Shown: positions 2,279-43,810 of the stretch, in pieces | How the letters are laid out: every line of letters starts with the position of its first letter | Position numbering within the stretch: the first letter of the stretch is position 1 | NCBI GenBank assembly: GCA_023247725.1 | Contig: JAHFFW010000004.1 | Coordinates: 19,921 to 83,920 of the forward strand | Origin: Candidatus Omnitrophota bacterium | Lineage (GTDB): Bacteria > Omnitrophota > Gorgyraeia > Zapsychrales > JAHFFX01 | Direction of reading: 5' to 3' | Length of the DNA stretch: 64,000 nt | The notes under the pieces: model-generated | Told to the model about the DNA's origin: nothing | What the model saw: only the letters and a program-made list of their open reading frames with translations | Databases searched by the model: none | Position numbers and translations under genes: made by a program

Positions 2279-3058
2279 ATGCCCCAAGCCCCCCAAATTG
2301 AATGGCACGAACAATGGAGCCTGTTCAGAAAGCCAGAGATTCCTTTCCTTTTTGAGGAATGGATTTTTCCTAATAAACTGGAGGATTTTAGGGGTAAATC
2401 GGTTTTGGAATGCGGCTGCGGGGGAGGACAACACACCGCCTTAATGGCTCCGTTTGCCAATAAAATCGTCGCGGTTGATCTCAATACGATCGATCTGGCC
2501 AAAGATCTCAATCGTGATGCCCAGAATATAGTTTTTCGGCAAGAAAATATCCTGGATATGAATTTAGGCGAAGAGTTTGACATTGTGCTTTCGATCGGTG
2601 TGATCCACCACACGGATCATCCGGAAAAAGCCGTTGAAAACCTAAAAAGGCACCTTTCCAGAGGCGGCAGGATTATATTGTGGGTTTATAGTCAAAAGGG
2701 AAACTTCCTGATGAAGCATTTGGTTGAACCAGCGAGAAGGCTTATCTTTAAAAAATTAAGTCGGAGAAACCTAAAATTTTTTTCCCAAGGGATCACCTTA
2801 CTACTGTATGTGCCGGTTTATTCCCTTTATCTTTTCCCTTTGCCTTTCTTGCCTTATTTTGGATATTTTAAAAATTTTAGAAGATTACCTTTTTATCGTA
2901 ATACCTTGAACATTTTTGATAAACTCAATGCGCCTCAGGTCGATTTTATTAGCAAGAAGCGAATTCAAACATGGTTTAGTGAAGCCGAATTTAAAGATAT
3001 CCATGTGAGTCCTTATGTTGGCGTCAGCTGGAGAATCAGCGCCACCAGAAAAATTTAA
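2279..3058 (+). CDS. Class I SAM-dependent methyltransferase
   Basis: VLECGCGGG glycine-rich SAM motif I followed by acidic motif II (VAVDL); hydrophobic C-terminus. Confidence 0.75.
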   Translation: MPQAPQIEWHEQWSLFRKPEIPFLFEEWIFPNKLEDFRGKSVLECGCGGGQHTALMAPFANKIVAVDLNTIDLAKDLNRDAQNIVFRQENILDMNLGEEFDIVLSIGVIHHTDHPEKAVENLKRHLSRGGRIILWVYSQKGNFLMKHLVEPARRLIFKKLSRRNLKFFSQGITLLLYVPVYSLYLFPLPFLPYFGYFKNFRRLPFYRNTLNIFDKLNAPQVDFISKKRIQTWFSEAEFKDIHVSPYVGVSWRISATRKI

Positions 3059-13662: not shown

Positions 13663-13678
13663 ATAGGATCATTTTACC

Positions 13679-15963: not shown

Positions 15964-15974
15964 GTCTTCATTCC

Positions 15975-23343: not shown

Positions 23344-23345
23344 CG

Positions 23346-24038
23346 ATGCCAAAACCAAAGACCAAAGAGGCGCAAAATCAATTCCAATTCGACCATTACC
23401 GTGGGAAGGGACCCGTCGGGCTTGGTCCCTGGAGCAGTCATAGCTGGCGGGACGATCCAAAGCACATTGGGTTTACGCTGGCCCGGTACAAGTTTTGCGC
23501 CAAAATGCTTCATGGCAAAAAAGAAGTTCTGGAAATCGGATGCGGCGATGCCTTTGGAACCCCCATCATTTTGGAATCCGCTCGAAGGATTCATGCCGTC
23601 GATTTTGAGCCGCTCATTGTGGCTGATGCCCGGGCCCGCTATCGAAAAGAAGGAATGGGCCCGATCACTTTTTCAGTTGAGGACCTCACGGTGCGGCCGG
23701 TTCCCGGAAGTTTTGATGCGGTCTATTCGCTCGATGTTCTGGAACACATTCCGCAAAGAAAAGAAAGTCGTTTTATGAACAATATCGTTGCGAGTTTGAA
23801 ACCTGATGCGGTTTGTATTCTAGGAACCCCGAATAAAGAGGCCCGACGATTTGCCAGCAAAGCGAGCCAAGAAGGCCACGTCAATTTAAAAACCGCCCAG
23901 ACCTTAAGAATGCTCCTGATGCGTTATTTTAAGAATGCCCTGATTTTTTCCATGAATGATGAAATCGTGCATACCGGTTATTACCCGATGGCTCATTATT
24001 TATTGGGAATGGGTGTTGGGTTAAGGGCGCTATCATGA
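23346..24038 (+). CDS. Class I SAM-dependent methyltransferase (paralog B of 18948..19625)
   Basis: VLEIGCGDAFG; shared DPKH, ARYKFCAK and C-terminal FSMNDE(I/V)VHTG...PMAHYL blocks. Confidence 0.7.
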   Translation: MPKPKTKEAQNQFQFDHYRGKGPVGLGPWSSHSWRDDPKHIGFTLARYKFCAKMLHGKKEVLEIGCGDAFGTPIILESARRIHAVDFEPLIVADARARYRKEGMGPITFSVEDLTVRPVPGSFDAVYSLDVLEHIPQRKESRFMNNIVASLKPDAVCILGTPNKEARRFASKASQEGHVNLKTAQTLRMLLMRYFKNALIFSMNDEIVHTGYYPMAHYLLGMGVGLRALS

Positions 24039-24790
24039 CGGCGATGGACAAAAGTCTAACGGTTGTTGTCCCTGCCTTTAACGAGGAACAAAATATCCTC
24101 TCGGCCATTGAAAATGTAAAGGGTGCTTTGGAAGGGATGGACTGGGAAATCATTGTGGTCAATGACGGAAGCTCGGATCAAACCGGTTCTTTGGCGGAAA
24201 AAAAGGCCAAGACCGATGCGCGGGTCCGGGTCGTCCATAATGAAAAAAATCTCGGCTACGGACACGCCTTTCAGCGGGGGGTGGGGTTGGCCACGCGTTC
24301 TTACATTGGAATATTCCCCGGCGATAACGATATGTCGGCAAAATCCCTGCTCGATTTGGTGGAAAACATCGGCGACGCGGACATGATCACGGCCTATATG
24401 TCCGATAGCAAGAGGCGACCTTGGGGCCGGCGATGTCTTTCGCGTTTATTTGTTTTCTTGTTGAGCGTGCTTTTCGGGTTGCCGCTCAAATATTACAACG
24501 GTCCGTTCATTTGCCGGCGGGGATTATTACAATCCTTAGCCATCAAATCGGAGGGGCTGACGGCTTTGGCGGAGTGCAAAATTCGCCTGCTGAAAATGGG
24601 ATGCACCTATAAAGAAATCCGTTTTGACCATACTGGCCGCCAGGCCGGGCGTTCCAGCGCGCTGCGATGGAAAAGCATCAAACAGACTTTAAGAAATGTT
24701 GCCATCCTTTTTAAAGACATTTATCTGACTCCTCGGGTTCTTCAACAAGAACCGGGCAGATCAACATGGAAGAACGCATTAAAACAATAA
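24035..24790 (+). CDS. GT2 polyprenyl-phosphate glycosyltransferase (DPM1/CsbB/GtrB-like)
   Basis: VVVPAFNEE, VVNDGSSD, GYGHAF and C-terminal amphipathic region; paralogous to 30804..31526. Confidence 0.8.
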   Translation: MTAMDKSLTVVVPAFNEEQNILSAIENVKGALEGMDWEIIVVNDGSSDQTGSLAEKKAKTDARVRVVHNEKNLGYGHAFQRGVGLATRSYIGIFPGDNDMSAKSLLDLVENIGDADMITAYMSDSKRRPWGRRCLSRLFVFLLSVLFGLPLKYYNGPFICRRGLLQSLAIKSEGLTALAECKIRLLKMGCTYKEIRFDHTGRQAGRSSALRWKSIKQTLRNVAILFKDIYLTPRVLQQEPGRSTWKNALKQ

Positions 24791-24802
24791 AACCGGAGTA
24801 TT

Positions 24803-25318
24803 GTGTTCTATCTTCTTGCCAGTTGGTTTTTTTTTAGTTTGGCGGTTATCGCTCATATTGTTTGGTCGCGGAAAACAAGAAATCCATCCCGCTGGCTTGC
24901 GATGTTTTGCTTCATTGCTCTCATCATGCTTTGCGGGGATGTCGTCTTCGCTGGAATTTTTAGCCACGTTGTCGGAAACAATAGCCCTGGAGTAGCCACA
25001 TTGCCCCTCTACGGAACGGCGATTGTTTTTTATGTGATGTTGGTGCCCGTCTATACCTTGTTATATTTTGCCATGCTGACGGACAGTCCCTCGAAAATGA
25101 TTCTCAAGAAACTGCAAGCCGAGGGAACTTCGACCTATGAAGATTTATTGAAGCTCCTGACTTATGAAGAGGTTATTTCGCCGCGGTTGCAGGATCTTGA
25201 GGCCGGTGGCTTCATTCGTCGGGAAAACGATCAATATTGGCTTTTGCGTCGAGGGCACGGGGTGGCGAAATTGATTTCGCTTTGCCAAAAAATTTGCAAC
25301 CGGGGATTGGGAGGATAG
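24803..25318 (+). CDS. Small membrane protein with a C-terminal winged-helix-like domain (paralog 1)
   Basis: Two or three N-terminal hydrophobic helices, then YEDLLKLLTYEEVISPRLQDLEAGGFIRRENDQYWLLRRGHG resembling a wHTH recognition helix plus wing. Confidence 0.5.
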   Translation: MFYLLASWFFFSLAVIAHIVWSRKTRNPSRWLAMFCFIALIMLCGDVVFAGIFSHVVGNNSPGVATLPLYGTAIVFYVMLVPVYTLLYFAMLTDSPSKMILKKLQAEGTSTYEDLLKLLTYEEVISPRLQDLEAGGFIRRENDQYWLLRRGHGVAKLISLCQKICNRGLGG

Positions 25319-25330
25319 TCAAAAAAGAAC

Positions 25331-25897
25331 ATGTTCAGTATTTTTGATCAATTCATTTTGGTGATGGCAGGGCTTTCTTGCCTTTTCTTCATTGCGATTC
25401 AAGTCCTGGTGTTTCGTTTTATCGGTGCTGCCGGGGTCTTAAAGTGGCTTATGAACGTTTATTGGATCAGCACGATTTTGGGAGAAGGATTGACCATCTT
25501 TTTTGCCCGGAACGTATCGGCCTTCCATGGACGAGGACCGGCAGAGCTCGTGATCGTCTTTTTGGTATCCTTTATCCTTTACAGTTTAATGGCTTTTTTG
25601 TATGTCTTATTTATTTTGGGTCCTTACGAATCATCGGTCCGGTTACGGATTGTTCAGGAGATGGATCGCTATTATCCCAAAGGCTGCTCATTGGCGGCGC
25701 TTTTGCAGGCGTATAATACGGAAATTATTTTAAAACGCCGTTTAGGTCGCTTAATGGAGGCAGGAGATATATCCTACGACGGGCATTTATATCATCTTAA
25801 AAAGGAAATCAATCTCTTTTTGGTGACCGATCGAATGGTCGCCCAACTGAATGAATTCATCAATGGTCCTAAGGGCGATCAAAAGCAGTCCTTGTGA
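25331..25897 (+). CDS. Small membrane protein with a C-terminal winged-helix-like domain (paralog 2)
   Basis: Same architecture as 24803..25318 (TM helices, then LAALLQAYNTEIILKRRLGRLMEAGDISYDGHLYHLKK). Confidence 0.5.
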   Translation: MFSIFDQFILVMAGLSCLFFIAIQVLVFRFIGAAGVLKWLMNVYWISTILGEGLTIFFARNVSAFHGRGPAELVIVFLVSFILYSLMAFLYVLFILGPYESSVRLRIVQEMDRYYPKGCSLAALLQAYNTEIILKRRLGRLMEAGDISYDGHLYHLKKEINLFLVTDRMVAQLNEFINGPKGDQKQSL

Positions 25898-27974
25898 GAG
25901 AACCCCGAACCGGTCTTCGCTAATGCTTTTTATCGTTCCGGTTGCCTTCTGGCTCTTTTTGTTCCGTGATCTGGTCACGGCCAGGGCCTTTATTATCGGG
26001 GATTCCTTTAGCGTCTATTGTGTCGTGAAATTTTTTCTCGATTCCTTGCAGGAAGCGGTTTTTCCCTTGTGGGATCCTTTCTTAAATTTCGGTGAACCCT
26101 ATATACGGCATTTCGGTGAATTCAACCCCATCCTTATCCTCGTCGGAATTCTTTCGAAAACGGGGCTTTCCTTTTATCCGTCATTCTTGACGGCGTTTAT
26201 TATTTATTTTCTGTTGGGTGTGGCTGGCTTTTATTGGTTAGCCCTGCGGATTTTCCAAGATAAGGCGGCGGCGTATTTTTGTTTTGTGCTGCTTTTATTT
26301 TCTTCACTGGGCATGAACATCTTCAACCAAATCACCATTGTCTTGATCTATGTCCCCGTTGTCTGGTTTTTTTATTTTCTTTTGTGCTTTTACGAAAGCC
26401 CCGGGCATCGGGATTTTATGGGATGCGTGTTGACTTTATCAATGATTATCACGACGTATATTCCTTTTTATTTCTTGACGGTTTTCTTATTCATGTTTTT
26501 GGGCGTCGTTATTCTTTATCCTGCGGATGTGTCGGATTTTATTCGGAAATTAGCGGATTTTTTCCGCCCAAAAGCGATCTTTTGTTTTATCGGAGCGATC
26601 GTCCTGGCAATATCCCTAATGAGCGCCTGGTTCAATTACCGGTTGCTCAATTCGGATTTGAATGTTCCGGTTTGGCACTCGGCCACCCAGGCTTCCGCGG
26701 GCCTAGCCTTTGATTATGAACAACAAGCCACCAACGGAGCCATTCAAATTCCCTTGGGCAGGGGAATCTTTTCAGCTTCATTAATAGATATTCCTTACAG
26801 CAACGAGCGATTTTTTTATGTCCCGTTCTTTGTTTATCTGACGGTTTTGGCATTTCCCTGGACCCGCGCCAACCGGCGTATGGTGCTCTTCACGGGCGCA
26901 GGATTATTGCTTTTTTTTATCTGTTTAACCAAGGCTACGCCAGTTTATCCATTTTTCTTCAGGCATGTCTTTTATTTCAAATTATTCCGAAATTTGCATT
27001 TGTTCATTCCTTTTATCAGCTCCCTGCTGATTCTTTTGGCGGCCGAGCAATTGTCGGCTTTTTTTCAAATGGTTCAAGTCCATGGTAAAAAGTTTTGGGG
27101 TTATGGGTGGATTATTTTCTTTCATGCTGCCATTTTCGTTTTTTTATTGCGGCAGGAAGAAATTCTTTTAACGACTTTTTTGACGCTCCTGGTCAGTTTG
27201 GTATTTTTTTTGTTGGCGTGGGGTCGGCTTTTAACCCTCCGGAATGCCTGGACGCCCTGGGTGCTTTTACTGGCGATCATTTTGCAGCCCGTCGAGGTTC
27301 TCTGGGCTTTTCAAGACAAGGCCAAAAGTCATCACACGCCCATTATTGCCCGCGGTCTGCAGGCAGAAACCCGGCGCAGTGTTTTTTCCTATACGAGGCC
27401 GATGCCGAACGTCGTTGCAACTGACGTTGAGGATTACAATCTGTATTACAGTTATTTGGCCTTACGTGAAAATTCGCCGGTTTCCCCTTATCGTTATGGT
27501 TATCCGCCGCGTTGGTCGTATGAGCTTTCGCAAAATCTTGATCCTTTGACAGCCAAACTTCTTAGAAACCGTTTGCTCATTTTTAATTCTTCTCAAGAAG
27601 CAAGGATTTTGGGACTCGGGGCAGGCAGGTCCATCTGGGAGGGGTCGCAGGAAGTGCGCATCCTTCGCTTTGATCCAAACAAATTGATTCTCCAAACCCA
27701 TTTCTTAACGGAACAATTTTTTGTTCTGACGGATAGCTATCATCCGTTTTGGCGGGCCTGGATCAACGAAAAAGAGGTCCCCATCGAGCGTGCCCTGGGA
27801 GCCTTCCGAGGAATCAGGCTTCCTTGCGGACCCCAGGTGCTGCGATTGAAATATCAACCATGGGGAGCGGAAATTTTTCCCTGGATCACGATGATGATTC
27901 TGTGGTTAACCTTTGCGGATCTCCTGTATCTTTCTTGGAAAGGATTTCGTGGACGCAACCTTCGATCAGCATGA
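25851..27974 (+). CDS. YfhO-like GT-C-type polytopic membrane glycosyltransferase candidate
   Basis: More than 10 predicted TM helices. C-terminus SYHPFWRAWINEKEVPIERALGAFRGIRLPCGPQVLRLKYQPWG + TM matches the YfhO C-terminal signature and ORF 3058. The start is uncertain (25851, 25863 or 25923). Confidence 0.55.
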   Translation: MNSSMVLRAIKSSPCERTPNRSSLMLFIVPVAFWLFLFRDLVTARAFIIGDSFSVYCVVKFFLDSLQEAVFPLWDPFLNFGEPYIRHFGEFNPILILVGILSKTGLSFYPSFLTAFIIYFLLGVAGFYWLALRIFQDKAAAYFCFVLLLFSSLGMNIFNQITIVLIYVPVVWFFYFLLCFYESPGHRDFMGCVLTLSMIITTYIPFYFLTVFLFMFLGVVILYPADVSDFIRKLADFFRPKAIFCFIGAIVLAISLMSAWFNYRLLNSDLNVPVWHSATQASAGLAFDYEQQATNGAIQIPLGRGIFSASLIDIPYSNERFFYVPFFVYLTVLAFPWTRANRRMVLFTGAGLLLFFICLTKATPVYPFFFRHVFYFKLFRNLHLFIPFISSLLILLAAEQLSAFFQMVQVHGKKFWGYGWIIFFHAAIFVFLLRQEEILLTTFLTLLVSLVFFLLAWGRLLTLRNAWTPWVLLLAIILQPVEVLWAFQDKAKSHHTPIIARGLQAETRRSVFSYTRPMPNVVATDVEDYNLYYSYLALRENSPVSPYRYGYPPRWSYELSQNLDPLTAKLLRNRLLIFNSSQEARILGLGAGRSIWEGSQEVRILRFDPNKLILQTHFLTEQFFVLTDSYHPFWRAWINEKEVPIERALGAFRGIRLPCGPQVLRLKYQPWGAEIFPWITMMILWLTFADLLYLSWKGFRGRNLRSA

Positions 27975-29010
27975 AGCGAAGAAGCGCCCTTTCGCGCAGG
28001 CGGGTCCTATCAAGCTCCCCCGCCCGCCTGCCGGCGAGGCAGGGACCCTGCCGGCGGGGCTCCATGGCTCAGCAGCTTTTCTCAAAAGAATTTTCGGGTC
28101 TTCCGGTGCGCTTCTGGGTTTTACCTTGTTTTTGTTGTTCTTTGGGATCAATTATGAATTTTTGAGAATCGCCCGTCTAAATTATTTGTATGATCCGGAT
28201 AACATCTTGGGGAAATTTGCCCAGAATCAGATCTCATTAACGCCTGATCAATTCAAAGAGCGCTTGATGGAAAGCCGGGAGACGGTGCGATATCTTCCCT
28301 ACAAGGCTTTGGCTTACGGGAATCTCGGATTTTGCTATTTTTATGCCAAGGACGTCCCGCGGGCCATTCATGCTTATCGTCGGGCTATTGCCGAGGAACC
28401 GAATTGGTATCATTTATATTTCGACCTGGCGTTGATTTATTATGATCGCCGGGATTATATCCAGGCGGCAAAATTTCTCGAACAAAGTCTCTCGATCATC
28501 CCCAAGACCCGCGGGTTATTCCGCGAGGTCACGCTTTTTTTAAATCAGAATCAAAATCCTTTTTTTATCGAGATGGTGCAATATTTGAATCGCATCGATC
28601 AGGATGAACCCACCCTTTGGCTGATTCTGGGGGAAACTTATTATCATCAGAAACGAATACAGGAATTCCTCAAGATTTCCCAGGAGGGCTCCAGGCTTTT
28701 TCCGGGCCAGGCAAGATTCCGATTCCATCTGGCGATCGGTTATTTCCTTTTGGAAAAATGGGCGGATGCCAAGGTCTCCATTGATGCCGCCATTGCCCAG
28801 TACCCCGGGCAGTCGGAATTTTATTCCCTGCGCGGAATGATCCAGCAAAAATTGACCGGGGAAAATTCTATCGAAGATTTTCAGAAGGCCTTTATTCTTT
28901 CTGGCCAAGGAAAGCACAGCACGGCATTTTTTCCTACCCCACCCAGGTTGCATTATTTTCCGGCTGACTGGCTTTTTAAGGTTTACAGCCAGACCGGATT
29001 CATTAAGTAA
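27913..29010 (+). CDS. Membrane-anchored TPR-repeat protein
   Basis: One TM (ALLGFTLFLLFFGI) then TPR-like repeats (AYGNLGFCYFYAKDVPRAIHAYRRAIAEEP; LYFDLALIYYDRRDYIQAAKFLEQSL). The start is uncertain: the only in-frame ATG (27913) overlaps the upstream gene by 62 nt and precedes a GC-rich low-complexity stretch. Confidence 0.55.
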   Translation: MRISCIFLGKDFVDATFDQHEAKKRPFAQAGPIKLPRPPAGEAGTLPAGLHGSAAFLKRIFGSSGALLGFTLFLLFFGINYEFLRIARLNYLYDPDNILGKFAQNQISLTPDQFKERLMESRETVRYLPYKALAYGNLGFCYFYAKDVPRAIHAYRRAIAEEPNWYHLYFDLALIYYDRRDYIQAAKFLEQSLSIIPKTRGLFREVTLFLNQNQNPFFIEMVQYLNRIDQDEPTLWLILGETYYHQKRIQEFLKISQEGSRLFPGQARFRFHLAIGYFLLEKWADAKVSIDAAIAQYPGQSEFYSLRGMIQQKLTGENSIEDFQKAFILSGQGKHSTAFFPTPPRLHYFPADWLFKVYSQTGFIK

Positions 29011-29068
29011 TAATCGACAAAATTTCTTCTTATGTTACTTTAGTGTTGTTTATTGAAGGGAAATTTTC

Positions 29069-29791
29069 ATGGATGAGTTGAGCGGAAAAACTGCCGTTGT
29101 GACCGGGGCTTCGAGCGGGATTGGCAAGGCTATTGCGCTTCGATTCGGCGCCTTGGGCATGAAGGTTATTTTGATCGCCCGGCGTAAAAATGAGCTAAAA
29201 AAAGTTCAACACGGGATCCAGGCACAGGGTGGCACGGCCTTTATCTATCCGCTTGATTTAACCCGGCCTGAGGCGATCGCAAAAGTATTTCGGCAAATCC
29301 ACCGAGAGAGAGGGCCTGTACAGGTCCTCGTCAACAACGCCGGGATCGGATCTTTTGGTAAACCGGTCGTTCATTGCAGCCTGCAAGAATATGAACAGAC
29401 CTTCGATGTGAATTTGCGCGCGGTTTTTTTGGTGACGAAGGCCGTTTTGCCGTCGATGCTCAAGGTCAAAGAAGGGACGATCATCAACATCGGCTCCACT
29501 TATGGAAAAAACGGAATTCCCCGTTCGGCATTTTATTGTGCCAGCAAATTTGCCTTGGAAGGTTTTTCGGAGGCCTTGTTGCATGAGGTTCGGGAATATA
29601 ACATCGGTGTTTGCCTGATTTCTCCCGAACGCGTACGGATTGAAGCCTTGGGCAAAGATAGGCCCATTAAGGGAAATCTGGATCACTATATCAGCGTCGA
29701 AGATGTCGCCCGGGCGGCCGTATTTTGTGCTCGCCACAGCACAACGGCCACCGTCAGGGAAGTGATCCTTTATACTCGCCGGCCGATTTAA
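29069..29791 (+). CDS. SDR-family oxidoreductase
   Basis: AVVTGASSGIGKAIA, NNAG, YCASK motifs. Confidence 0.85.
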   Translation: MDELSGKTAVVTGASSGIGKAIALRFGALGMKVILIARRKNELKKVQHGIQAQGGTAFIYPLDLTRPEAIAKVFRQIHRERGPVQVLVNNAGIGSFGKPVVHCSLQEYEQTFDVNLRAVFLVTKAVLPSMLKVKEGTIINIGSTYGKNGIPRSAFYCASKFALEGFSEALLHEVREYNIGVCLISPERVRIEALGKDRPIKGNLDHYISVEDVARAAVFCARHSTTATVREVILYTRRPI

Positions 29792-29797
29792 GAACCT

Positions 29798-30790
29798 ATG
29801 AAGCGTAAAATCCTGGTCATCGGCAGCAATTCTTTTTCGGGAAGCGATTTTATTGATTTGCTTCTAGAAAATTCCGGCAACGATGTTATTGGAATGAGCC
29901 GCTCACCGGAGAAGAGTGAGGTGTTTTTGCCTTATCGGCGCCATGCCAAACCCCAGTTTCAATTTTTTCGGTTGGATCTGAACAAAGACATGTCCCGGAT
30001 TAAGGAACTGGTGGATTCGTTTAAACCGCATTATGTCGTTAATTTCGCGGCTCAAAGTGAAGTGGGGCCAAGCTGGAAGTCTCCGTGGGATTGGTTCCAA
30101 ACCAATACGGTCGCCTTATCCCGCCTCATCGATCACCTCAAAGAAAAAAGCTTCCTCAAAAAATATATTCATATTTCCAGTCCGGAAATCTACGGGAACT
30201 GCCAGGGACTCGTCAAAGAGGATTATCGTTTAAATCCCAGCACCCCGTATGCCGTCTCCAAGGCGGGGGCCGATCTGCTTCTTCTCGCATATTTTAGGAA
30301 TTACCGGTTTCCATTGGTCATTATTCGTTCCACCAATGTTTACGGAGCCCACCAGCAGTTATTCAAAATTTTTCCACGCGCCGTGATCCGGATCAAGTCC
30401 GGACAAAAATTGGAATTGCATGGTGGCGGCCAGGCCGTGAAATCCTATATTCATGTCCGCGATATTTCCCGGGGAGAGCTTTTGGCCTTAGAAAAGGGCC
30501 GCGTCGGAGAAACCTATCATCTTTCGCCAAAAGAGGGAATGTTGGTCCGTGATCTTGTTCGCAGGATCTGCCAGCGGATGGGTGCGAATTTTGAGAGAGC
30601 GACCGTCCCTGTTTCAGAACGTCTGGGGCAGGATCAGGCCTATGTCATTGACTCCACCAAAGCCCACACCGAGCTGGGGTGGAGCCCGCAGGTGTCTTTA
30701 GACCAAGGGATTGATCAAGTGATCGCATGGGTCAACCAGTTCTGGAAGCAGATCCAAAAACTGCCCTTGGAATATCATCACAAACCCTGA
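29798..30790 (+). CDS. NAD-dependent epimerase/dehydratase family (extended SDR; NDP-sugar dehydratase/epimerase-like)
   Basis: ILVIGSNSFSGSD Rossmann motif, YAVSKAGAD catalytic YxxxK; about 330 aa. Confidence 0.8.
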   Translation: MKRKILVIGSNSFSGSDFIDLLLENSGNDVIGMSRSPEKSEVFLPYRRHAKPQFQFFRLDLNKDMSRIKELVDSFKPHYVVNFAAQSEVGPSWKSPWDWFQTNTVALSRLIDHLKEKSFLKKYIHISSPEIYGNCQGLVKEDYRLNPSTPYAVSKAGADLLLLAYFRNYRFPLVIIRSTNVYGAHQQLFKIFPRAVIRIKSGQKLELHGGGQAVKSYIHVRDISRGELLALEKGRVGETYHLSPKEGMLVRDLVRRICQRMGANFERATVPVSERLGQDQAYVIDSTKAHTELGWSPQVSLDQGIDQVIAWVNQFWKQIQKLPLEYHHKP

Positions 30791-30803
30791 CATCGTTTTT
30801 TTA

Positions 30804-31526
30804 ATGCCAACCCAAGATTTTTCCGTTTCCATCATTGTCCCCGCCTATAATGAGGAAGACAATATCGCTCAGGCCTTGCAGAATGTTCACAAAGCGATCC
30901 AGGGCCTGACGGATGATTATGAAATTTTGGTTTTTAGTGACGGTAGCCAAGATCGCACCGGCCGTATTGTTCAAGACCAGGCCAGGCTCCATCCTGGAAT
31001 CAAACTCATTGAATTCGAAGAAAATCAGGGATACGGGTATGTTTTTAAAGAAGGAATCCGTTTGGCCAGCAAAAAGTATTTTTTGATTTTCCATGGTGAC
31101 AACGACATGGCCTGGCAGTCGACCCGTGACCTTATTCTTAATGCCGGTCAGAGCGATCTGATTAGCTCTTATTTGACGGACATGAAAATCCGGTCTTTAT
31201 TCCGACGGATTATTTCCCAGACGTTTGTGATGGCGATGAATTGTCTTTTTGGGATGCAGCTGCGTTATTTCAATGGTCCCTTTATTTGTCGTTGTGAGCT
31301 ATTAAGTTCCCTGCCGCTGCGAAGTCCGGGTTTGACGGTCGTTGCCGAAACCAAGATTCGTTTGATCAAAAAAGGCCATAGCTACAAAGAGATTCCCTTC
31401 CAACATATCGGACGACGGGGCGGAAAATCAACGGCCCTGCGTTTTAAAAATGTGGTGACGGTGATATCGGTCGTCGCCGTTCTCTGGAAAGAGATTTATC
31501 TCACAAAGGATTCAGAGAAAAAATAA
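30804..31526 (+). CDS. GT2 polyprenyl-phosphate glycosyltransferase (DPM1/CsbB/GtrB-like), paralog of 24035
   Basis: SIIVPAYNEE, VFSDGSQD, GYGYVF; colinear similarity with 24035..24790 down to the C-terminal HIGRRGGKSTALRFKN block. Confidence 0.8.
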   Translation: MPTQDFSVSIIVPAYNEEDNIAQALQNVHKAIQGLTDDYEILVFSDGSQDRTGRIVQDQARLHPGIKLIEFEENQGYGYVFKEGIRLASKKYFLIFHGDNDMAWQSTRDLILNAGQSDLISSYLTDMKIRSLFRRIISQTFVMAMNCLFGMQLRYFNGPFICRCELLSSLPLRSPGLTVVAETKIRLIKKGHSYKEIPFQHIGRRGGKSTALRFKNVVTVISVVAVLWKEIYLTKDSEKK

Positions 31527-33652
31527 TGCCAAAGAAATTACCAGAGTTATTGTCCGCACTGGAAGGAAAAAATATTTTAAGCCTTTCCGGCCTGGCGGTT
31601 CTTTGGGGAATCCAGCTCCTGGCCTTTTTGAGCTGGGGGCTCAGCCTTTTCCCCGTTGATCAAAAGAGAGTTTGGGCCGATTTTTTTACCGTCGTTCACC
31701 CCGAGGTTCAGCCAGAGCGAGAAATCCTGTTATTCCGTTTCTTTGTTTTGGGAACAGTGGCTATTTTTGCCTTCTTGTTATTTCGTCGATTGAAAAACTT
31801 TCCGGAGAGCCTCCCGAGCCTGACCATGCGGTTAATGGCAGAAGGCTTGATAACGATTAGCCTGGTGAGCTCGGGGCTGGGATGGATTCTCGCTCCCGAG
31901 GCCAATGAACCTAAGGTGATGTTCTATCTGATGGCAGCTTTGGCGATGGCCGCCAAATTTCTTCCACACGCGAGTGAAAGTGTTATCCGGCAGATTGAAT
32001 TGGCGGGGGCTCGGTTCAAGGACGCGTTTAAGCGCTGGTACGGCGGCGATGTCCTATTTTTGCTTTGGATCTTTGCTGCCATTGCGATCGTCGATGTTGA
32101 ATCGGTGCTTGCCCTCAGCTATGTGCAGGACAAATTTCATCATTGGGACGGCTTTGTCATGGCGCCAGGCTGGGCTTATTTATCGGGATTGGTTCTCAAC
32201 CACGATTGTATCACCCAGTATGGGATTTTTTGTGTGGCGGTCCTCAGCCGAATGGCACAATGGCTCGGCGGGTTCAGTTATCAGCATGTCCTTGCCGTTA
32301 TCGCTGCCTCGACCATCATTTATTACATGGTCAGTTACTTATTCTTAAGATCTTGGTTAAAAGATTCGCTGTTAGCGGCCAGTGGCATTGTCTTAGGGTT
32401 GACTTGGCAGATGTTCCATTCCGGACTCGAAAGTGTGATTTGGCGTTTTCCTTCGGCAACCGTTATTCGCTATTTTTTTGATGTATTTATTTTTGTCCTT
32501 ATCCTGGCTCATATTCGTCGAGGAAAATTCATCTTTCTTTACTTCGCCGCCATCCTTGCCGGGGTATCGTTGGCCCATGTGACCGATACCGGAATATATG
32601 TGACGTTGACCTTATGGGCTTATTTGATTTTAGAAACGGTGCGGGAACTAAGCGGGAAGAATTTTTTTAAGTCCAGCTTGTACCGGATGATCGCCTGTGC
32701 CATCTTGCCTTTGATGGTGGCCGCCGCGATCCTTGGGTGGATGGAAGGCCCCTGGTTTTTCTCGGCGGAGTTTTGGAACAATTCAATTGAGAATATCCGA
32801 CTGTTCTTGCGTGGTTTTGGCAATTTGCCGATCTACACCAATTTGAAAGAAGGTTTTCCGGGACTTTTTCTCCTGGGATTGGCGATTCCCTTAATTTATG
32901 TTCTGAATCTCATGGTCATCGGTTCTTTATATATTTCTGGAAAACTCGGGAAAGAGCATGTGCTGGCGATCTTGCTGAGCATTTATGGGCTGGGCTTGTA
33001 TCATTACTATGTTTGCCGGTCTGCGATCATGAGTTATCTGGTCGTGAGTCTGCCTTTGGTCTTCATCCTGTGTTACTGGATGCAAGCCCTCTTGGAAAAT
33101 CTGGACCGCTTTCCCAGAAGAATCATGACAAGCGTTGTCTTGTTTCTTCTGTTAGTTCAGTTATTCTCTAATCCCATCTTTCAAAAGTATCCCAATATCT
33201 TTCATTCTAAAGCGCAGCTGTGGGCTGAGGAAAAGGCCCAGTTTGAAAAGGAATTTCATTTCCAATCGGACGAGGCCCTCATCAGAGAAATGACGAGGCC
33301 CGAAGAGCGCGTGGCTTTGATCAGCAGTTTTGAAACCCAGATCTTGATTGAGGCCCAGCGTCGCCCATATTTTTATTATTTTCCTCTCATCAATTCTGAA
33401 CGCATGGAGGTCAATAGTTTTCAGGGAACTTACCTTTGGGAAAAGAGCCGCTTGGATAAGACCTTAATGCAATTGCAGCAGCATTCTCCCCAATATATTT
33501 TTGTCGAAAAAAAACTTTTCGAAGGAAAACTTCCCCGGCCCTATTATGCTTATCATGAGACGCTGACGATCCTCATGCAATTTTTGTATGAGCATTACGA
33601 ACCAGTCAAGTCAGGGAAATACCTATTGGCACTCAAACGCAAACCCCTCTGA
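31526..33652 (+). CDS. Large polytopic membrane protein, GT-C-like glycosyltransferase candidate of unclear family
   Basis: About 13 hydrophobic helices over roughly 530 aa, then a soluble C-terminal domain; the start overlaps the GT2 stop (ATAATG). Confidence 0.45.
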   Translation: MPKKLPELLSALEGKNILSLSGLAVLWGIQLLAFLSWGLSLFPVDQKRVWADFFTVVHPEVQPEREILLFRFFVLGTVAIFAFLLFRRLKNFPESLPSLTMRLMAEGLITISLVSSGLGWILAPEANEPKVMFYLMAALAMAAKFLPHASESVIRQIELAGARFKDAFKRWYGGDVLFLLWIFAAIAIVDVESVLALSYVQDKFHHWDGFVMAPGWAYLSGLVLNHDCITQYGIFCVAVLSRMAQWLGGFSYQHVLAVIAASTIIYYMVSYLFLRSWLKDSLLAASGIVLGLTWQMFHSGLESVIWRFPSATVIRYFFDVFIFVLILAHIRRGKFIFLYFAAILAGVSLAHVTDTGIYVTLTLWAYLILETVRELSGKNFFKSSLYRMIACAILPLMVAAAILGWMEGPWFFSAEFWNNSIENIRLFLRGFGNLPIYTNLKEGFPGLFLLGLAIPLIYVLNLMVIGSLYISGKLGKEHVLAILLSIYGLGLYHYYVCRSAIMSYLVVSLPLVFILCYWMQALLENLDRFPRRIMTSVVLFLLLVQLFSNPIFQKYPNIFHSKAQLWAEEKAQFEKEFHFQSDEALIREMTRPEERVALISSFETQILIEAQRRPYFYYFPLINSERMEVNSFQGTYLWEKSRLDKTLMQLQQHSPQYIFVEKKLFEGKLPRPYYAYHETLTILMQFLYEHYEPVKSGKYLLALKRKPL

Positions 33653-33674
33653 ATGGATTTCCAAAATCCTAACG

Positions 33675-34388
33675 ATGGAAAAATATCTGGTCGGGATCTG
33701 TGCCTTTAATGAAGGAGCTAAAATTAAGAGGGTCATGACAAAGTTCGCTGATTATGGCCTTTACGAGGTGTTAGTCATTGATGATGGTTCGACGGATGGA
33801 TCTCTGAGTGTAGTTTTATCTCATGAGGCGGTCACGCTGATTCGTAATGAACAGAATCGCGGCGCCGGCTATGGGACAAGACAGATCGTGAATTATGCGA
33901 GACAGAATCATTATACAGCCGTCATTTTTGTCTCTGGAAATGATAAAGACTCTCCCGCTGATGTCGCTAAACTTAAAGACGCGATTGAGGCCGGATACGA
34001 TTTTGTGCAAGGCTCCCGATATTTACCGGGCGGCGGTCATGGAGGAATGCCATTGTATCGAATGCTCACAACTCAATATATCCATCCCTGGCTATTTTCT
34101 CTAATCACCGGAAAAAGGATTACGGATAGCACCAATGGATTTCGGGCGGTTCGGGTAAACATGTTCAATGATCGAAGAATCAACCTGAATCAGCCCTGGC
34201 TTGATCATTATGAACTCGAACCTTATTTGTTTTATAAGGCGATTACCTGCGGTTATAAAGTCAAAGAAGTGCCGGTTACAAAGATTTATCCGAAAAAAGC
34301 AGAGGGTTACACTAAGATGCGCCCATTCATCGACTGGTGGAGTATTTTAAGACCGCTGGTGTATTTAGGATTAAGGATCAAAAAATAA
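33675..34388 (+). CDS. GT2 glycosyltransferase (polyprenyl-phosphate sugar synthase-like)
   Basis: VLVIDDGSTDGS, NRGAGYG motifs. The track ORF begins at 33588, but the ATG at 33675 (MEKYLVGICAF) lies after the upstream stop. Confidence 0.75.
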   Translation: MEKYLVGICAFNEGAKIKRVMTKFADYGLYEVLVIDDGSTDGSLSVVLSHEAVTLIRNEQNRGAGYGTRQIVNYARQNHYTAVIFVSGNDKDSPADVAKLKDAIEAGYDFVQGSRYLPGGGHGGMPLYRMLTTQYIHPWLFSLITGKRITDSTNGFRAVRVNMFNDRRINLNQPWLDHYELEPYLFYKAITCGYKVKEVPVTKIYPKKAEGYTKMRPFIDWWSILRPLVYLGLRIKK

Positions 34389-35989
34389 TGGACTTTAAAA
34401 ATCGGTTGCCATGGCTTCATATCCTGGCGGGCCTGGCCGGGTTCATCATTGTCTTAGGAATCATTTTGCGCTTTTTTCGCATCACCGACGCGGATTTTAC
34501 TTTCTATGACGAAGGGCTTTACCTTAATCTCAGCCGACCGTTTTCGGATTTTGTGGCCAAGCACTTGCCCCTTAAAGGAGCGGATTTCTGGCAAGCGGTA
34601 TACACCTTACTGTTGATTTCTTTACCCCAAGGCAAGGCGCTGTGGCTTTTTCTTGTGGATTCGAGGGTATTTTGGGGGTTGTGGGAAGGGTGGTCGGTTC
34701 CTCGTGTCATTGCGGCGGTGTCAGGCACTTTAACCCTTGGTCTGGAATTTATTTTTGTCCAACGGTTTTTTCAGAATCGGCTCATCGCTTTTTTAAGTGT
34801 GGTTCTCTTGAGTATTTTACCCAGCCATGTGTTTTATTCCCGCCTGGCCTTGCAGGAAACTTTGAGTACACTTTTTTTCCTCGCCGGTTTCTATTTTTAT
34901 TTGTTTCCGGCAAAATTGAATTCAAGGACGTTCTTATCGGCGGTCTTTTTCATCGGCGCCTATTTTACCAATTACCGCCTCATCATTATTCCTTTACTGG
35001 TTCTTTGGGCCGAAATCTGGATGTCATTATCCCTAGGCCAGAGACCCAATGTTCGTAAATATATCTGGCATGTACTGACTTTCCTCAGCCTGATGTTCAG
35101 TATTGGCGCCATTGATGAAGGGCAGAATACCGTCGTCACCTTTTCTTGGATGTTCCATCAGGCGCAGCTGGGCCAACACCAATTCGACTGGCTTAACTTT
35201 TTTTCCTTTCCCTATTATTTGTTTCGCTTGGAGCATCCATTCTTTGGATTGTTATTTTTCAGCGGGGCATATTTACTCTCTCGAAGGAGTTTCTATGATC
35301 TTTTGCCTTTGGGGTTAGTGCTTTTGCAGATGGCCATCTTTTCTTTCGCGGCGGATAAGGCCGCTCGCTATGTGTGTGTCGTGACTCCTTTTTTGGCGGC
35401 GTCCGTGGCGGTGACAATTGCCCGGTTATGGGACGATATCAAAAATCCCCGTCGGCAAGTTGTCCTGGGGATTCTGGTCTTCTTTCTTGTTGCGGGCATG
35501 ACACTCAAATCCGTGAGATTGGCTACGGCAGTTTCTGACTATCGCCCGTCGATGCAATACTTGGTCGGTCTTGATCCTGCGGTTAAAGTCATTTCCACAC
35601 AGCCTTTCGTCCAAAACCTATATGTTGAACCCAGAGAGCGCGTTCAAGAGTGTCCACTGGAATTCATCGGTCTGGTTGCCTTATACATGCAAGGATACCG
35701 ATACTTAGTTTTAGATCCCCAAGCCTATATCACTTATACCGCTGACCGAAATAAATTCACGCCCGTTCTTAAGGATTACCTTGGATTCATTTTAACCAAC
35801 GCCAAACCTGTTAAGGAATTCCCACATTTTAACCAGGATTTATTGGAGAGATTTGTTTTCGAACACAATGAAAATTTGCAGCGTTCGCTGGCTTTTTTGC
35901 GGATGAATGATGCCGGGATGGGGAGACTACGGATTTATGACATCAACGCGTGCTTGCTCGCCATTCAGCAACGTTTAGGATCGCGATGA
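34388..35989 (+). CDS. GT-C glycosyltransferase, PMT/ArnT-like (GT39/GT83-like)
   Basis: FTFYDEGLYLN first-loop DE motif characteristic of PMT/ArnT-family GT-C enzymes; more than 10 TM helices. ATG 34388 overlaps the upstream TAA (TAATG). Confidence 0.6.
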   Translation: MDFKNRLPWLHILAGLAGFIIVLGIILRFFRITDADFTFYDEGLYLNLSRPFSDFVAKHLPLKGADFWQAVYTLLLISLPQGKALWLFLVDSRVFWGLWEGWSVPRVIAAVSGTLTLGLEFIFVQRFFQNRLIAFLSVVLLSILPSHVFYSRLALQETLSTLFFLAGFYFYLFPAKLNSRTFLSAVFFIGAYFTNYRLIIIPLLVLWAEIWMSLSLGQRPNVRKYIWHVLTFLSLMFSIGAIDEGQNTVVTFSWMFHQAQLGQHQFDWLNFFSFPYYLFRLEHPFFGLLFFSGAYLLSRRSFYDLLPLGLVLLQMAIFSFAADKAARYVCVVTPFLAASVAVTIARLWDDIKNPRRQVVLGILVFFLVAGMTLKSVRLATAVSDYRPSMQYLVGLDPAVKVISTQPFVQNLYVEPRERVQECPLEFIGLVALYMQGYRYLVLDPQAYITYTADRNKFTPVLKDYLGFILTNAKPVKEFPHFNQDLLERFVFEHNENLQRSLAFLRMNDAGMGRLRIYDINACLLAIQQRLGSR

Positions 35990-37014
35990 CGGTGAAGACC
36001 TTACCTTTAAAGGACGCCTTGGCGAAACTAGCCTTGCCGGCTACCGACCGCAATCTTTTTTCTTCCCCCGAATGGATGAAGGTCATTGTATGCACTTATG
36101 GAACCAGAATTTTTGTCAAATACATCGAACGTGATGCAAAAGTTTCTAGTTATGTTTTTTATACGGTGGTAAAAAATTTTTTGGAATGGAAGATTTGCCT
36201 TTGTTCTTATTGCGATTATTGCGATGGATATGTCAACTGTGCCCAAGACTGGGAGGATTTTTTCCAAGATTTCCGGAGGGAGTACCCTTCCTACCGCATT
36301 GCCGTGCGCAATCTGCGTGACGATCTTGTGCGCGCCAACCCTCACTTTCAACTTCTAAGCCAGGAGTGGTTTCATTTGCTGAATCTTCAGGATAGTCTCG
36401 AAGCCATTTGGAACCGTACGCATGAATCATTTCGGTCCGCCGTTAAGCAAGGCAAAAAGAAAGAGATTTCTGTCCGTGTGTGTGAGAAAAAATATTTGGC
36501 GGATTTTTATCGGCTTCATTTGCGTTTGCGGAAAAATAAATATCGGGTATTTCCGCAGCCTTTGGCTTTTTTTGAGAATATTTGGAATGAGTATATGGAA
36601 AGGAAGAAAGGATTCATGCTGGGGGCTTTCTTTAGGGAACAGTTGGTCGCGGCCAATATCTATTTGGAGTGCGGGAATACGTTATACTATAAATTCAATA
36701 CCTCCGATTTATCGGCGACGCATCTACGGCCTAACAATGTGCTTTTTTGGGAAGGCATTGAGCTCGCTAAAAAGCGGGGACTCGAATATTTGGACTTAGG
36801 CTCGAGTGGTCTGGAACAAAAGGGCCTGATTTTATTTAAGGAACACGCTGGGGTAAAAGGGCAATATATCTTTCACTTGGGATTTGCCCCGCCGGGATTC
36901 AAATTCAGCAAAAAAAGAATCCTCAAGGCATTCACGACAATCTGCACCCGGCCCTGGATGCCCGAAGCCGCCGTCCGCTGGGGAAGCCAGATTATTTATC
37001 CATACTTAGCTTGA
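35986..37014 (+). CDS. FemAB-like / GNAT-fold acyltransferase (Acetyltransf_6-like)
   Basis: C-terminal NIYLECGNTLYYKFNTSDLSATHLRPNNVLFWEGIELAKKRGLEYLDLGSS resembles the FemAB/BioF2-like acyltransferase core. ATG 35986 overlaps the upstream TGA. Confidence 0.45.
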   Translation: MTVKTLPLKDALAKLALPATDRNLFSSPEWMKVIVCTYGTRIFVKYIERDAKVSSYVFYTVVKNFLEWKICLCSYCDYCDGYVNCAQDWEDFFQDFRREYPSYRIAVRNLRDDLVRANPHFQLLSQEWFHLLNLQDSLEAIWNRTHESFRSAVKQGKKKEISVRVCEKKYLADFYRLHLRLRKNKYRVFPQPLAFFENIWNEYMERKKGFMLGAFFREQLVAANIYLECGNTLYYKFNTSDLSATHLRPNNVLFWEGIELAKKRGLEYLDLGSSGLEQKGLILFKEHAGVKGQYIFHLGFAPPGFKFSKKRILKAFTTICTRPWMPEAAVRWGSQIIYPYLA

Positions 37015-37784
37015 AAGAAGGAATGACCAAATCTCAAAGAACCAAAATGGAATTAAAAGAAATTTTCAATCATTGGGCAAAAAGCGTTCATCCGGATTAT
37101 GCCCATCAGCAGTGGCTTTTGAGCAAATGGGAAGTATTTGAGGGAATTGAATGGTCTGCGGCAAAGATTGATTTGATGGTCAAAACAATTGCCCAAGGAT
37201 TGAGTTTAAAAATTTCGGATTGTCTGATCGATTTGGGATGCGGGGCTGGCTGGATTTTACAGGCCCTTTTGTCGCGCTGTGCAAAGGGAGTCGGCTTGGA
37301 TATTTCCTGGGAAATGCTCAAAATGGCGACTCGCAAAGCCCGCGTGAATTATCTTTGCGGCGAGATCGGCCAATTGCCTTTGCGATCTGAAAGTTTCGAT
37401 TGTGCCTTGGTTTACTATGTATTTTTGAATTTTCGGGACTATCGTTATGTCGAACAATCGCTCTTGGAGATCTTTCGCATTCTAAAACCTGGTGGTCGGG
37501 CCTTAATTGGACAACTGCCTGACCAAAATTGTTCGGCTGATTACGAGCTGGCAAAGGCCGACCATTTGCAATTTTGTCAACGGCATTATCTGCTGGGAAA
37601 GAATAATCGGGACCTTTATTTACCCCCGTTGCGATTGTTCGACCGGAATCGCTTAAAAGATTTTTTGGGAAAATACAACATGGACCATCGATTTCTGCCC
37701 TCCTTTAATCCTTTCTTCCGAGAAGGAAAGCCTGAAGTGATCGATTGGCGATTCGACCTGATTCTGGAAAAAAATCTAAAATGA
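37011..37784 (+). CDS. Class I SAM-dependent methyltransferase
   Basis: LIDLGCGAGW motif I, VGLDIS motif II, LKPGGRALIG post-II region. Confidence 0.8.
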   Translation: MKEGMTKSQRTKMELKEIFNHWAKSVHPDYAHQQWLLSKWEVFEGIEWSAAKIDLMVKTIAQGLSLKISDCLIDLGCGAGWILQALLSRCAKGVGLDISWEMLKMATRKARVNYLCGEIGQLPLRSESFDCALVYYVFLNFRDYRYVEQSLLEIFRILKPGGRALIGQLPDQNCSADYELAKADHLQFCQRHYLLGKNNRDLYLPPLRLFDRNRLKDFLGKYNMDHRFLPSFNPFFREGKPEVIDWRFDLILEKNLK

Positions 37785-38806: not shown

Positions 38807-38847
38807 AAAATATTTGGAAATTTTTCGCAGCATTTTCAAATTGCGCT

Positions 38848-38874
38848 TTGAGCCAATAACCTTTTTGTTATAAT
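38848..38874 (+). promoter_or_regulatory. Promoter with extended -10 (TGTTATAAT) upstream of the glucan phosphorylase gene
   Basis: TG at 38866-67 and TATAAT at 38869-74; possible -35 TTGAGC at 38848-53 (short spacer). The same TTTTGTTATAAT motif occurs at 57011. Confidence 0.4.
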
Positions 38875-38917
38875 ATGACCTGCATCAAATCCGAAAATTC
38901 GAAAAAGGAGACAGATT

Positions 38918-40945: not shown

Positions 40946-40948
40946 GTC

Positions 40949-41764: not shown

Positions 41765-41767
41765 TTC

Positions 41768-42316: not shown

Positions 42317-42531
42317 CAATTTTTTGGCGATTTTTGGAAACGTTTCCTAAAAATCCGGGTTATTCGCTAAGTTATTATTACAGGCTGGTTTGTAGCAACT
42401 CAGGAAAAATCCCTGAAAAAATTTCCCAAAGTTCGCATGGTAGAATTTTTGTAAGTCATTTATACTTAAGATGATTCTGCAACATTATGTCTTCTGGAAT
42501 TCGGAACATAGTGGAGGGCTGTGTTTAGGAA

Positions 42532-43728: not shown

Positions 43729-43782
43729 TCCTCCTTAAATCCGTTCGTTTTCAACTCGTTCCTGTCGAAAAGTAAGTTCTTT

Positions 43783-43810
43783 TTGCAAATTGTAATTTCC
43801 TCATTATAAT
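43783..43810 (+). promoter_or_regulatory. Sigma70-like promoter upstream of glgB
   Basis: TTGCAA (43783-88), 16-nt spacer, TATAAT (43805-10). Confidence 0.45.

Follow-up and report, generated by a model that had tools for sequence, protein, structure and literature searches.

Putative polyprenyl-phosphate-sugar synthases and GT-C-type membrane proteins in one gene block of an Omnitrophota genome

Genes of the block and their predicted products

We analyzed a 64-kb window (the whole stretch of DNA under study) on a contig of a Candidatus Omnitrophota metagenome-assembled genome (MAG), with a focus on a block of genes at 24035-37784, in which three genes of glycosyltransferase (GT) family 2 (GT2) are found together with genes for large membrane proteins of putative GT-C type. 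Coordinates of open reading frames (ORFs) are window positions. Genes were classified by Pfam and NCBIfam scans, a hydropathy scan for transmembrane (TM) segments, sequence searches in PDB, and Foldseek comparisons of predicted models. A first-pass annotation had described three tandem modules, each consisting of a DPM1/CsbB/GtrB-like GT2 gene followed immediately, often with a start/stop overlap, by a gene for a large membrane protein. The coordinates of these genes were right: all genes of the block are on the + strand and tightly packed, with gaps of at most 58 bases or overlaps, and an independent gene call on identical metagenomic contigs yielded the same genes. The immediate succession with overlap was found for two of the three pairs. 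The junctions of GT2#2 (30804..31526, 240 aa) with MP2 (31526..33652, 708 aa) and of GT2#3 (33675..34388, 237 aa) with GTC3 (34388..35989, 533 aa) both read TAATG, a one-base overlap of stop and start, and in both cases the GT2 gene is, as judged from the sequence, translationally coupled to the gene that follows it. GT2#1 (24035..24790, 251 aa) is instead separated from YfhO1 (25923..27974, 683 aa, or 707 aa if the start is the ATG at 25851) by two genes for small membrane proteins, sm1 (24803..25318, 171 aa) and sm2 (25331..25897, 188 aa).

When all window ORFs were scanned with three family profiles, exactly four ORFs of the large membrane type were found: YfhO0, YfhO1, MP2 and GTC3, with 7-12 hydrophobic segments apiece. 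The three GT2/GT-C sets are contained in one co-directional 12-kb block, and YfhO0 (3058..5823, + strand, 921 aa) lies 20 kb upstream.

All three GT2 proteins pass the PF00535 cut-off of 23.3 bits (85.4 bits for GT2#1, 73.4 for GT2#2 and 63.4 for GT2#3), and the closest solved relative of each is the dolichol-phosphate mannose synthase of Pyrococcus, PfDPMS (5mlz). The alignments place residues 7-227 of GT2#1 on 24-248 of 5mlz (E 2.6e-11) and residues 8-166 of GT2#3 on 29-191 (E 3.6e-7); for GT2#2, they cover residues 4-217 (E 9.9e-13), and GDNDM falls on DADLQ, i.e., the DxD is on the DAD motif. GT2#1 and GT2#2 are paralogues (47% identity) that also match ArnC and GtrB (sll0501) in the PDB sequence search. 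GT2#3 is distant from both and resembles AglJ and dolichyl-phosphate hexose transferases; its entire sequence aligns with the NCBIfam models AglJ, DPhHxTase (dolichyl-phosphate hexose transferase) and PpgS, with all scores below the cut-off. It should be noted that the NCBIfam equivalog scores of the GT2s are far under the cut-offs (e.g., 40 versus 370 for PpgS and 70 versus 325 for AglJ); as no such cut-off is approached, the sugars of these proteins cannot be named. The earlier description of the GT2s as DPM1/CsbB/GtrB-like agrees with these matches, and by homology the three proteins are putative polyprenyl-phosphate sugar synthases of the DPM1/GtrB/ArnC type. The hydropathy scan found no C-terminal TM anchor in any of them (237-251 aa), whereas GtrB, ArnC, CsbB and PfDPMS are anchored; in this respect the window proteins resemble the anchor-less subtype of DPM1, GacI and PpgS.

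The large membrane proteins had been proposed to be GT-C enzymes rather than transporters, and the results for each of them are consistent with this proposal, on somewhat different grounds. YfhO0 (12 hydrophobic segments) scores 41.3 bits with PF09586, above the cut-off of 28.5, so that the fourth YfhO-like protein reported at 3058 is present; it is a putative fourth extracytoplasmic transferase. YfhO1 (11 hydrophobic segments) reaches 22.7 bits with the same model, under the cut-off and in the C-terminus only; however, 23 of the 26 members of its family match PF09586 (E<=0.01), and D27, located right after the first TM segment, is acidic in 92% of the family. The family thus supports the assignment of YfhO1 to the GT-C type.

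The window copy of GTC3 has no match to PF02366 or PF13231 itself, whereas 27 of 35 members of its family (40-54% identical to the window copy) match PF02366 and 15 of 35 match PF13231. The FYDEG loop motif noticed in the first-pass annotation is present, and its D41, E42 and G43 are invariant in the 35 members. The predicted model (pLDDT 90.9; predicted local distance difference test) has GT-C structures as its top 37 Foldseek matches in PDB, among them STT3, AglB, ArnT (5f15, TM-score 0.53), ALG9/12, Pmt4, AftD, DPY19 and PglB. Family and predicted fold together support GTC3 as a PMT/ArnT-like GT-C. The locus L054 carries two GTC3 paralogues (7920-9587 and 13004-14632), of which only the second adjoins GT2#3 and FemAB-like genes.

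MP2 has no Pfam or NCBIfam match, and none of the 70 members of its family has a real Pfam match. PDB sequence searches with YfhO1, MP2 and GTC3 returned nothing relevant, either with single sequences or with family profiles. We considered MP2 as a divergent YfhO or PMT and rejected this possibility at the level of sequence, because the profile-profile probabilities were 9% with the YfhO1 family and 2% with the GTC3 family. The predicted models of MP2 and GTC3 (pLDDT 91-92) match GT-C enzymes ahead of any other fold, and transporters appear only at probability <=0.2 and TM-score ~0.1. For MP2, the top Foldseek matches are STT3, AglB and PglB, and ArnT, AftA, AftB, AftD and EmbA are also among the structural matches; MP2 is therefore a predicted GT-C, a supported assignment made by fold alone. 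In the model, four extra N-terminal helices precede the core TM helix and a loop with the motif FHHWD (D208); the helix order and the positive-inside rule suggest that this loop is periplasmic. D202 is acidic in 94% and D208 in 97% of the 70 sequences, and D227, R315, D319 and D582 are also near-invariant. All three families examined, YfhO1, MP2 and GTC3, retain an acidic residue directly behind their first core TM helix.

The MP2 family is large. A full profile search detected at least 1137 clusters (50% identity) at E<=0.001 and 406 at <=1e-30, as compared to just 11 relatives in a word-indexed search. The Pfam and NCBIfam models tested do not cover this family, which would found a new GT-C family. 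Some relatives measure 800-1166 aa and carry N-terminal extensions unmatched in Pfam, and ten long relatives (825-1166 aa) showed no fused GT2 domain and no Pfam match at all. A 522-aa ORF between MP2 genes (L014, 5906-7471) has weak GT2 similarity and, at about twice the length of the window GT2s, may represent a fusion or a longer version.

The small membrane proteins sm1 and sm2 have the same architecture, three hydrophobic segments followed by a C-terminal domain of ~70 aa. Alignments showed the conserved motifs H..CR, LVPxYLxFYVxTxLxSPSKxIL and a C-terminal GRxxGG in sm1, and FxYVLCxFGPYETSVRxRLxREI followed by YN...RLxRLxGxGDI in sm2, with strong conservation at the end of TM3 in both. 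No Pfam or NCBIfam family was found for either protein, and BLASTP found no significant similarity between them; the common architecture is visible in the multiple alignment only, and the two would be distant paralogues at most. The C-terminal domain is predicted to be cytoplasmic by the positive-inside rule. It weakly resembles winged helices (HTH_45 and HVO_A0261_N each match 3 of 14 members, and five of seven sub-threshold PDB matches are winged-helix regulators), and that of sm1 may be a winged helix.

The remaining genes of the block encode predicted modifying enzymes and a potential partner protein. The TPR protein (27949..29010) overlaps the end of YfhO1, has one N-terminal TM segment and matches TPR_2 and TPR_1; the same succession of a YfhO1-type gene and a TPR gene is seen in the P0002 contig and in the loci L065, L068 and L108, and the TPR protein may be an acceptor-recognition or scaffold partner. 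A short-chain dehydrogenase/reductase (SDR; 29069..29791; adh_short, 182 bits) and a nucleoside diphosphate (NDP)-sugar epimerase/dehydratase (29798..30790; GDP_Man_Dehyd, 166 bits; Epimerase, 144 bits) precede GT2#2 and probably tailor the nucleotide sugar that it uses. Downstream of GTC3 are a FemAB-like GNAT protein (35986..37014; Acetyltransf_6, 51.6 bits; FemAB, 29 bits) and an S-adenosylmethionine (SAM)-dependent methyltransferase (37047..37784; Methyltransf_11, 71.8 bits), which probably tailor the product.

Gene neighborhoods in related loci

We compared the window to 119 related loci, 40 from a genome scan with the MP2 family and 79 from a metagenome scan with the GTC3 family, and classified their ORFs by profiles built from the window. 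The query of the MP2 scan was an 11-sequence alignment, the 70-sequence alignment being too diverse. Nearly all homologues with names and related loci belong to Candidatus Omnitrophota MAGs; some of the assemblies bear the label "uncultured Planctomycetales".

The linkage of GT2 and GT-C genes differs strongly between the families. In 31 of 32 related loci, the gene after a GT2#3-type GT2 is GTC3; because of this frequency, and because the order recurs in the locus L065, the pairing is not due to chance. Seen from the other side, GTC3 has a GT2 as its immediate upstream neighbor in 36 of 57 loci and sm2 in three others, and 17 of 57 loci have GTC3 without any GT2. Genes of the GT2#1/2 type are followed by a GT-C gene in 19 of 30 cases and by sm1 in five of 30. 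In contrast, of 81 MP2 genes, 46 come directly after another MP2 and nine after a YfhO0-type gene, with only five after a GT2. The expectation that GT2 and GT-C genes are conserved as pairs across related genomes is thus borne out for GT2#3 and GTC3 and not for MP2, and, with GT2#1 separated from YfhO1 by sm1 and sm2, the picture of three equivalent one-to-one modules is not general.

The 40 MP2 loci are dominated by GT-C genes. At least two are present in 34 loci and at least three in 25, with a maximum of six (up to six per 14 kb); in total, there are 146 GT-C ORFs versus 16 GT2 ORFs, although the latter number may be too low, as the GT2s were detected with single-sequence queries at E 1e-5. 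The tandem arrays consist of two to six MP2 paralogues with a median within-array identity of 31% (maximum 42%), and the array copies keep D208 in 75 of 82, D319 in 82 of 82 and R315 in 79 of 82 cases. The array paralogues appear to be old, yet the putative catalytic residues are retained. Arrays of four to six paralogues are found at L006, L008, L024, L025, L031, L035 and other loci, often interleaved with YfhO0-type genes (820-880 aa).

The gene order of the block recurs in L065, on a 917-kb contig, with a GTC3 43% identical to that of the window. Its order is GT2#1, sm1, sm2, YfhO1, TPR, MP2, GT2#3, GTC3, FemAB and methyltransferase, which is the window order minus the SDR, the epimerase and GT2#2. 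Since these three genes are absent from an otherwise collinear locus, they look like an added cassette, which would make a donor for MP2. The modules also occur separately in other genomes, and the sequential decoration of a single acceptor, as suggested in the first-pass annotation, is only a candidate interpretation.

The sm1-sm2 genes are conserved as an ordered pair, and sm1 is always paired with sm2. A GT2#1/2-type gene is found within 1 kb upstream of the pair in seven of 12 loci, and a GT-C gene follows sm2 in ten of 13 (MP2 in four, GTC3 in three, YfhO1 in two, YfhO0 in one). With a GT2 of one type upstream and a GT-C of any family downstream, the pair tracks the type of GT2 and not a particular GT-C. 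Its position suggests, weakly, a role as a membrane adaptor/activator of the GT2 or as a flippase, with neither preferred; the cluster contains no GtrA, Wzx, MATE or SMR gene, which is why the flippase role is kept and which leaves sm1 and sm2 as the sole flippase candidates. Two small ORFs at 15604-16316 (119 and 113 aa), between the AsnB-like and GMC oxidoreductase genes, are both kept by the independent gene call; with at most one hydrophobic segment each and no family match, these ORFs (at 15604 and 15975) were discarded as candidates for ArnE/F-like flippases.

GTC3 is a positional core gene of Omnitrophota. In dozens of loci it lies directly upstream of FemAB-like and methyltransferase genes, ApbE, phosphorylase and ThyA, and the gene directly after it is FemAB-like in 20 of 49 loci. 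In the complete chromosome L001, PrmA and ArfB are followed directly by GTC3, with no GT2, whereas in the window's contig ~42 kb of glycan genes separate ArfB/YdjC/MoaC from GTC3. This difference points to a variable island at a fixed site, and the ArfB/YdjC/MoaC-GTC3 interval acts like a hot spot for the insertion of glycan genes. The anchoring of such a variable island by a conserved GT-C suggests that the cell surface diversifies at the strain level in Omnitrophota, which are mostly uncultured and possibly host-dependent nanobacteria, and whose surface probably governs attachment and phage resistance. Synteny is conserved in Omnitrophota for a backbone made up of GTC3, ApbE, glycogen phosphorylase, ThyA, DHFR, an EAL response regulator and GlgB (34388-46000 in the window; L001; L045-L123).

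The window contains several further groups of genes. A long co-directional block of tailoring enzymes spans 250-24038 and ~4.7 kb upstream of the window. It encodes a Zn-dependent alcohol dehydrogenase (Zn-ADH), E1 alpha-like and transketolase-C-like proteins, a split transketolase (N and C), two B12-radical-SAM enzymes, five SDRs, about six methyltransferases, an AsnB-like amidotransferase, a GMC oxidoreductase and an amine oxidase. We did not observe a nucleotidyltransferase, an initiating phosphoglycosyltransferase or Wzx/Wzy among its products. Synthesis of unusual branched or methylated sugars and lipid modification are candidate functions of this block. The segment 38918-50394 is a glycogen/alpha-glucan cluster (phosphorylase, the GlgB branching enzyme, a GH57 protein with DUF3536, and a GH77 4-alpha-glucanotransferase), interspersed with genes for ThyA, DHFR and the EAL response regulator. 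A 746-aa protein at 52313-54553 has one N-terminal hydrophobic segment, followed by ~700 Q/E/K-rich, coiled-coil-like residues, and no Pfam match; its region has a strong positive AT skew.

Proposed mechanism and alternative explanations

We consider it likely that the GT2s make lipid-linked sugars, that the four GT-C proteins transfer these sugars outside the membrane, and that the block makes up the variable portion of a surface-glycan island. The mechanism would include three steps: (i) the three anchor-less cytoplasmic GT2s, as their homology suggests, would each move one sugar from a nucleotide sugar to polyprenyl phosphate, so that as many as three distinct lipid-linked monosaccharides would be available as donors on the inner side of the membrane, with the SDR and the epimerase/dehydratase tailoring the nucleotide sugar of GT2#2; (ii) the donors would be flipped, and sm1-sm2 may serve donor-making, as adaptor/activator, or donor-flipping, as flippase; (iii) YfhO0, YfhO1 with its TPR partner, MP2 and GTC3 would transfer sugars from the lipid donors to an extracytoplasmic acceptor, using the conserved acidic residue in the first periplasmic loop. 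Further modifications would be added by the FemAB-like protein and the methyltransferase encoded after GTC3. Candidate acceptors are lipopolysaccharide (LPS) or another polysaccharide, a glycolipid, and surface proteins. The GT-C activity would follow from the predicted fold, the motifs and the gene linkage described above, with the chemistry of transfer and the lipid carrier being putative.

Several observations weigh against this interpretation. The activity, the sugar, the lipid carrier and the acceptor are not readable from sequence. The window copies of YfhO1 and GTC3 are under the Pfam thresholds, so that their membership is predicted via their families and, for GTC3, also via the fold; the global TM-scores of the models versus GT-C structures are about 0.4-0.5. 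The Pfam scans and the upstream annotation revealed no nucleotidyltransferase for a dedicated NDP-sugar in the cluster, and no flippase of the GtrA/GtcA type (PF04138), Wzx, MATE or SMR. The role suggested for sm1/sm2 comes from gene position, and their C-terminal domain weakly resembles a DNA-binding winged helix. A promoter/terminator scan of 20000-39500 was no better than for shuffled sequence, so that the operon boundaries remain inferred, and it is the gene spacing that suggests an operon. Finally, as the top Foldseek matches are oligosaccharyltransferases, en-bloc transfer is conceivable.

The modules may instead be independent of each other, each GT2/GT-C set having its own acceptor, as for CsdAB, CsdCD and CsdEF in Lactococcus, and being neighbors only through their location in the same variable island. 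We regard this explanation as possible, with clearly less confidence than the shared system outlined above. The pair GT2#3-GTC3 stands alone beside ApbE or phosphorylase in many loci, GTC3 occurs without a GT2, and MP2 arrays lie at other loci of a chromosome that also bears the GTC3 locus (L009, L001); pairs with separate acceptors are documented (PMC8035078). Conversely, L065 keeps the order from GT2#1 through the methyltransferase at 43% identity of GTC3, and the genes are tightly spaced throughout; different acceptors are still compatible with both observations.

Stepwise assembly of a polymer is somewhat less probable still, and we consider it unlikely for this window. Here, the GT-Cs, chiefly MP2 paralogues, would build and branch an extracytoplasmic polysaccharide from one or a few lipid-linked donors, in the manner of Emb/Aft with mycobacterial arabinan, instead of just decorating a completed polymer. 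In its favor, tandem arrays of 2-6 GT-C genes in the related loci are accompanied by few GT2s, old paralogues that keep D208, D319 and R315 are compatible with different linkage specificities and few shared donors, and AftA, AftB, AftD and EmbA are among the structural matches. The window, however, has one MP2 and a GT2:GT-C ratio of 3:4, nearer to a decoration pattern; genes for primer synthesis were not identified, and the low GT2 count in the relatives may partly reflect the detection limits noted above.

Another explanation takes the GT2s as Leloir enzymes that extend a lipid-PP-oligosaccharide on the cytoplasmic side, which a GT-C would transfer en bloc to protein, like PglB or AglB. It would account for STT3, AglB and PglB as the top matches of the MP2 and GTC3 models and for the lack of TM anchors in the GT2s, and the TPR partner could bind protein substrates. 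We find it quite improbable: the GTC3 family matches PMT models of Pfam and not STT3, the WWD motif is in neither MP2 nor GTC3, Pfam scans of the cluster found no initiating phosphoglycosyltransferase or Wzx-type flippase, and the alignment of the GT2s with DPMS runs through the region of the interface helix. The last alternative, that the large membrane proteins are transporters or permeases with an incidental link to the GT2s, could draw on the missing Pfam/NCBIfam matches of the window MP2 and GTC3 and on the empty PDB sequence searches, and is effectively refuted by models that match GT-C only, by the conserved acidic residues of the periplasmic loop, by family matches to PMT and YfhO models, and by the conserved adjacency of GT2s.

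A more specific form of the favored mechanism can be offered only tentatively, namely an Omnitrophota-specific system of periplasmic glycan building, in which MP2 arrays and expanded YfhO-type proteins would be fed by anchor-less DPM1-like synthases dependent on sm1/sm2 as adaptor or flippase. If true, Omnitrophota would assemble a complex, strain-variable surface glycan or glycoprotein coat largely in the periplasm.

Comparison with known systems

The general principle, with synthesis of a lipid-linked sugar by a GT2 and its transfer by a GT-C on the outside, is textbook knowledge. Three features appear to be new: (i) MP2, a large, unmodelled family of GT-Cs whose genes are arranged in long arrays in Omnitrophota; (ii) the sm1-sm2 module; (iii) three donor synthases stacked compactly with several GT-C families in a variable island anchored by a core GT-C. 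We found no published description of MP2 arrays, sm1-sm2 or such stacking in the Omnitrophota glycosyltransferase/mannosyltransferase literature; a 2026 preprint places cell-surface biosynthesis genes in hypervariable regions of Omnitrophota, in general terms only.

Anchor-less GT2s that work with small membrane proteins are known from eukaryotes, in which DPM1-DPM2-DPM3 makes a dolichyl-phosphate sugar. In bacteria, a TM-less GT-A with a separate small membrane protein has been described as well: GacI needs GacJ, and GacI-GacJ-GacK-GacL of Streptococcus pyogenes is the closest precedent for GT2#1 with sm1/sm2 (PMC8035078). The sm1 and sm2 proteins have no sequence match to DUF2304/GacJ or DPM2/3 (no Pfam match at E<=1), and differ from them in having three TM segments each and a predicted cytoplasmic, winged-helix-like domain of ~70 aa; their interaction with a GT2 is putative. 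This pair offers a new candidate to close a gap of long standing in such systems, either the recruitment of anchor-less synthases to the membrane or the flipping of the lipid-linked sugar.

In Firmicutes, CsbB-GtcA-YfhO and CsdAB/CD/EF with CflA are built on the same principle, with a GT2 that makes C55-P-sugar and an adjacent GT-C (YfhO, PMT_2-like or Pfam-less) that transfers the sugar outside (PMC8035078). The GT-C members often have no Pfam match and are recognized through structure (PMC8035078), and the PDB entries matched there and in this study are the same: 5EZM, 6S7O, 6EZN, 3WAJ, 5OGL and 6W98. B. subtilis, L. lactis and L. monocytogenes each have three GT-A/GT-C pairs that share one flippase (PMC8035078), and clustered GT-C genes are common in Omnitrophota; thus, the statement in the first-pass annotation that no comparable arrangement had been described is too broad, and it holds insofar as the genes of the described pairs are scattered. 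Here, in contrast, the genes are stacked in one block, the GT2s are TM-less, sm1-sm2 is found instead of a GtrA/GtcA flippase, and the host belongs to a diderm phylum of the PVC group, without teichoic acids.

Among diderms, a GT2 is likewise combined with a GT-C in ArnC-ArnT-ArnE/F (aminoarabinose of lipid A) and in GtrA-GtrB-GtrX (glucosylation of the O-antigen). ArnC and GtrB carry two C-terminal TM helices, whereas the window GT2s have none, and the cluster has no SMR-type ArnE/F or GtrA. ArnT is a structural match of both GTC3 and MP2, with a sequence identity of 12-14%. Compared to Ppm1-Pmt of Actinobacteria and eukaryotic PMT/TMTC, there is no MIR domain here and the window GTC3 reaches no PMT model; a protein acceptor is a candidate.

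The mycobacterial Emb/Aft system (embCAB) is comparable in that GT-C paralogues lie side by side, share a lipid-linked donor and make a polymer outside the membrane. It has no sequence relationship to the proteins studied here; its donor comes from a phosphoribosyl pyrophosphate (PRPP)/UbiA route, as opposed to a GT2-based one, and the Omnitrophota arrays are longer. Were the tentative scheme of periplasmic glycan building correct, it would represent an independently evolved bacterial counterpart of mycobacterial arabinan assembly, or of glycan extension in the lumen of the endoplasmic reticulum.

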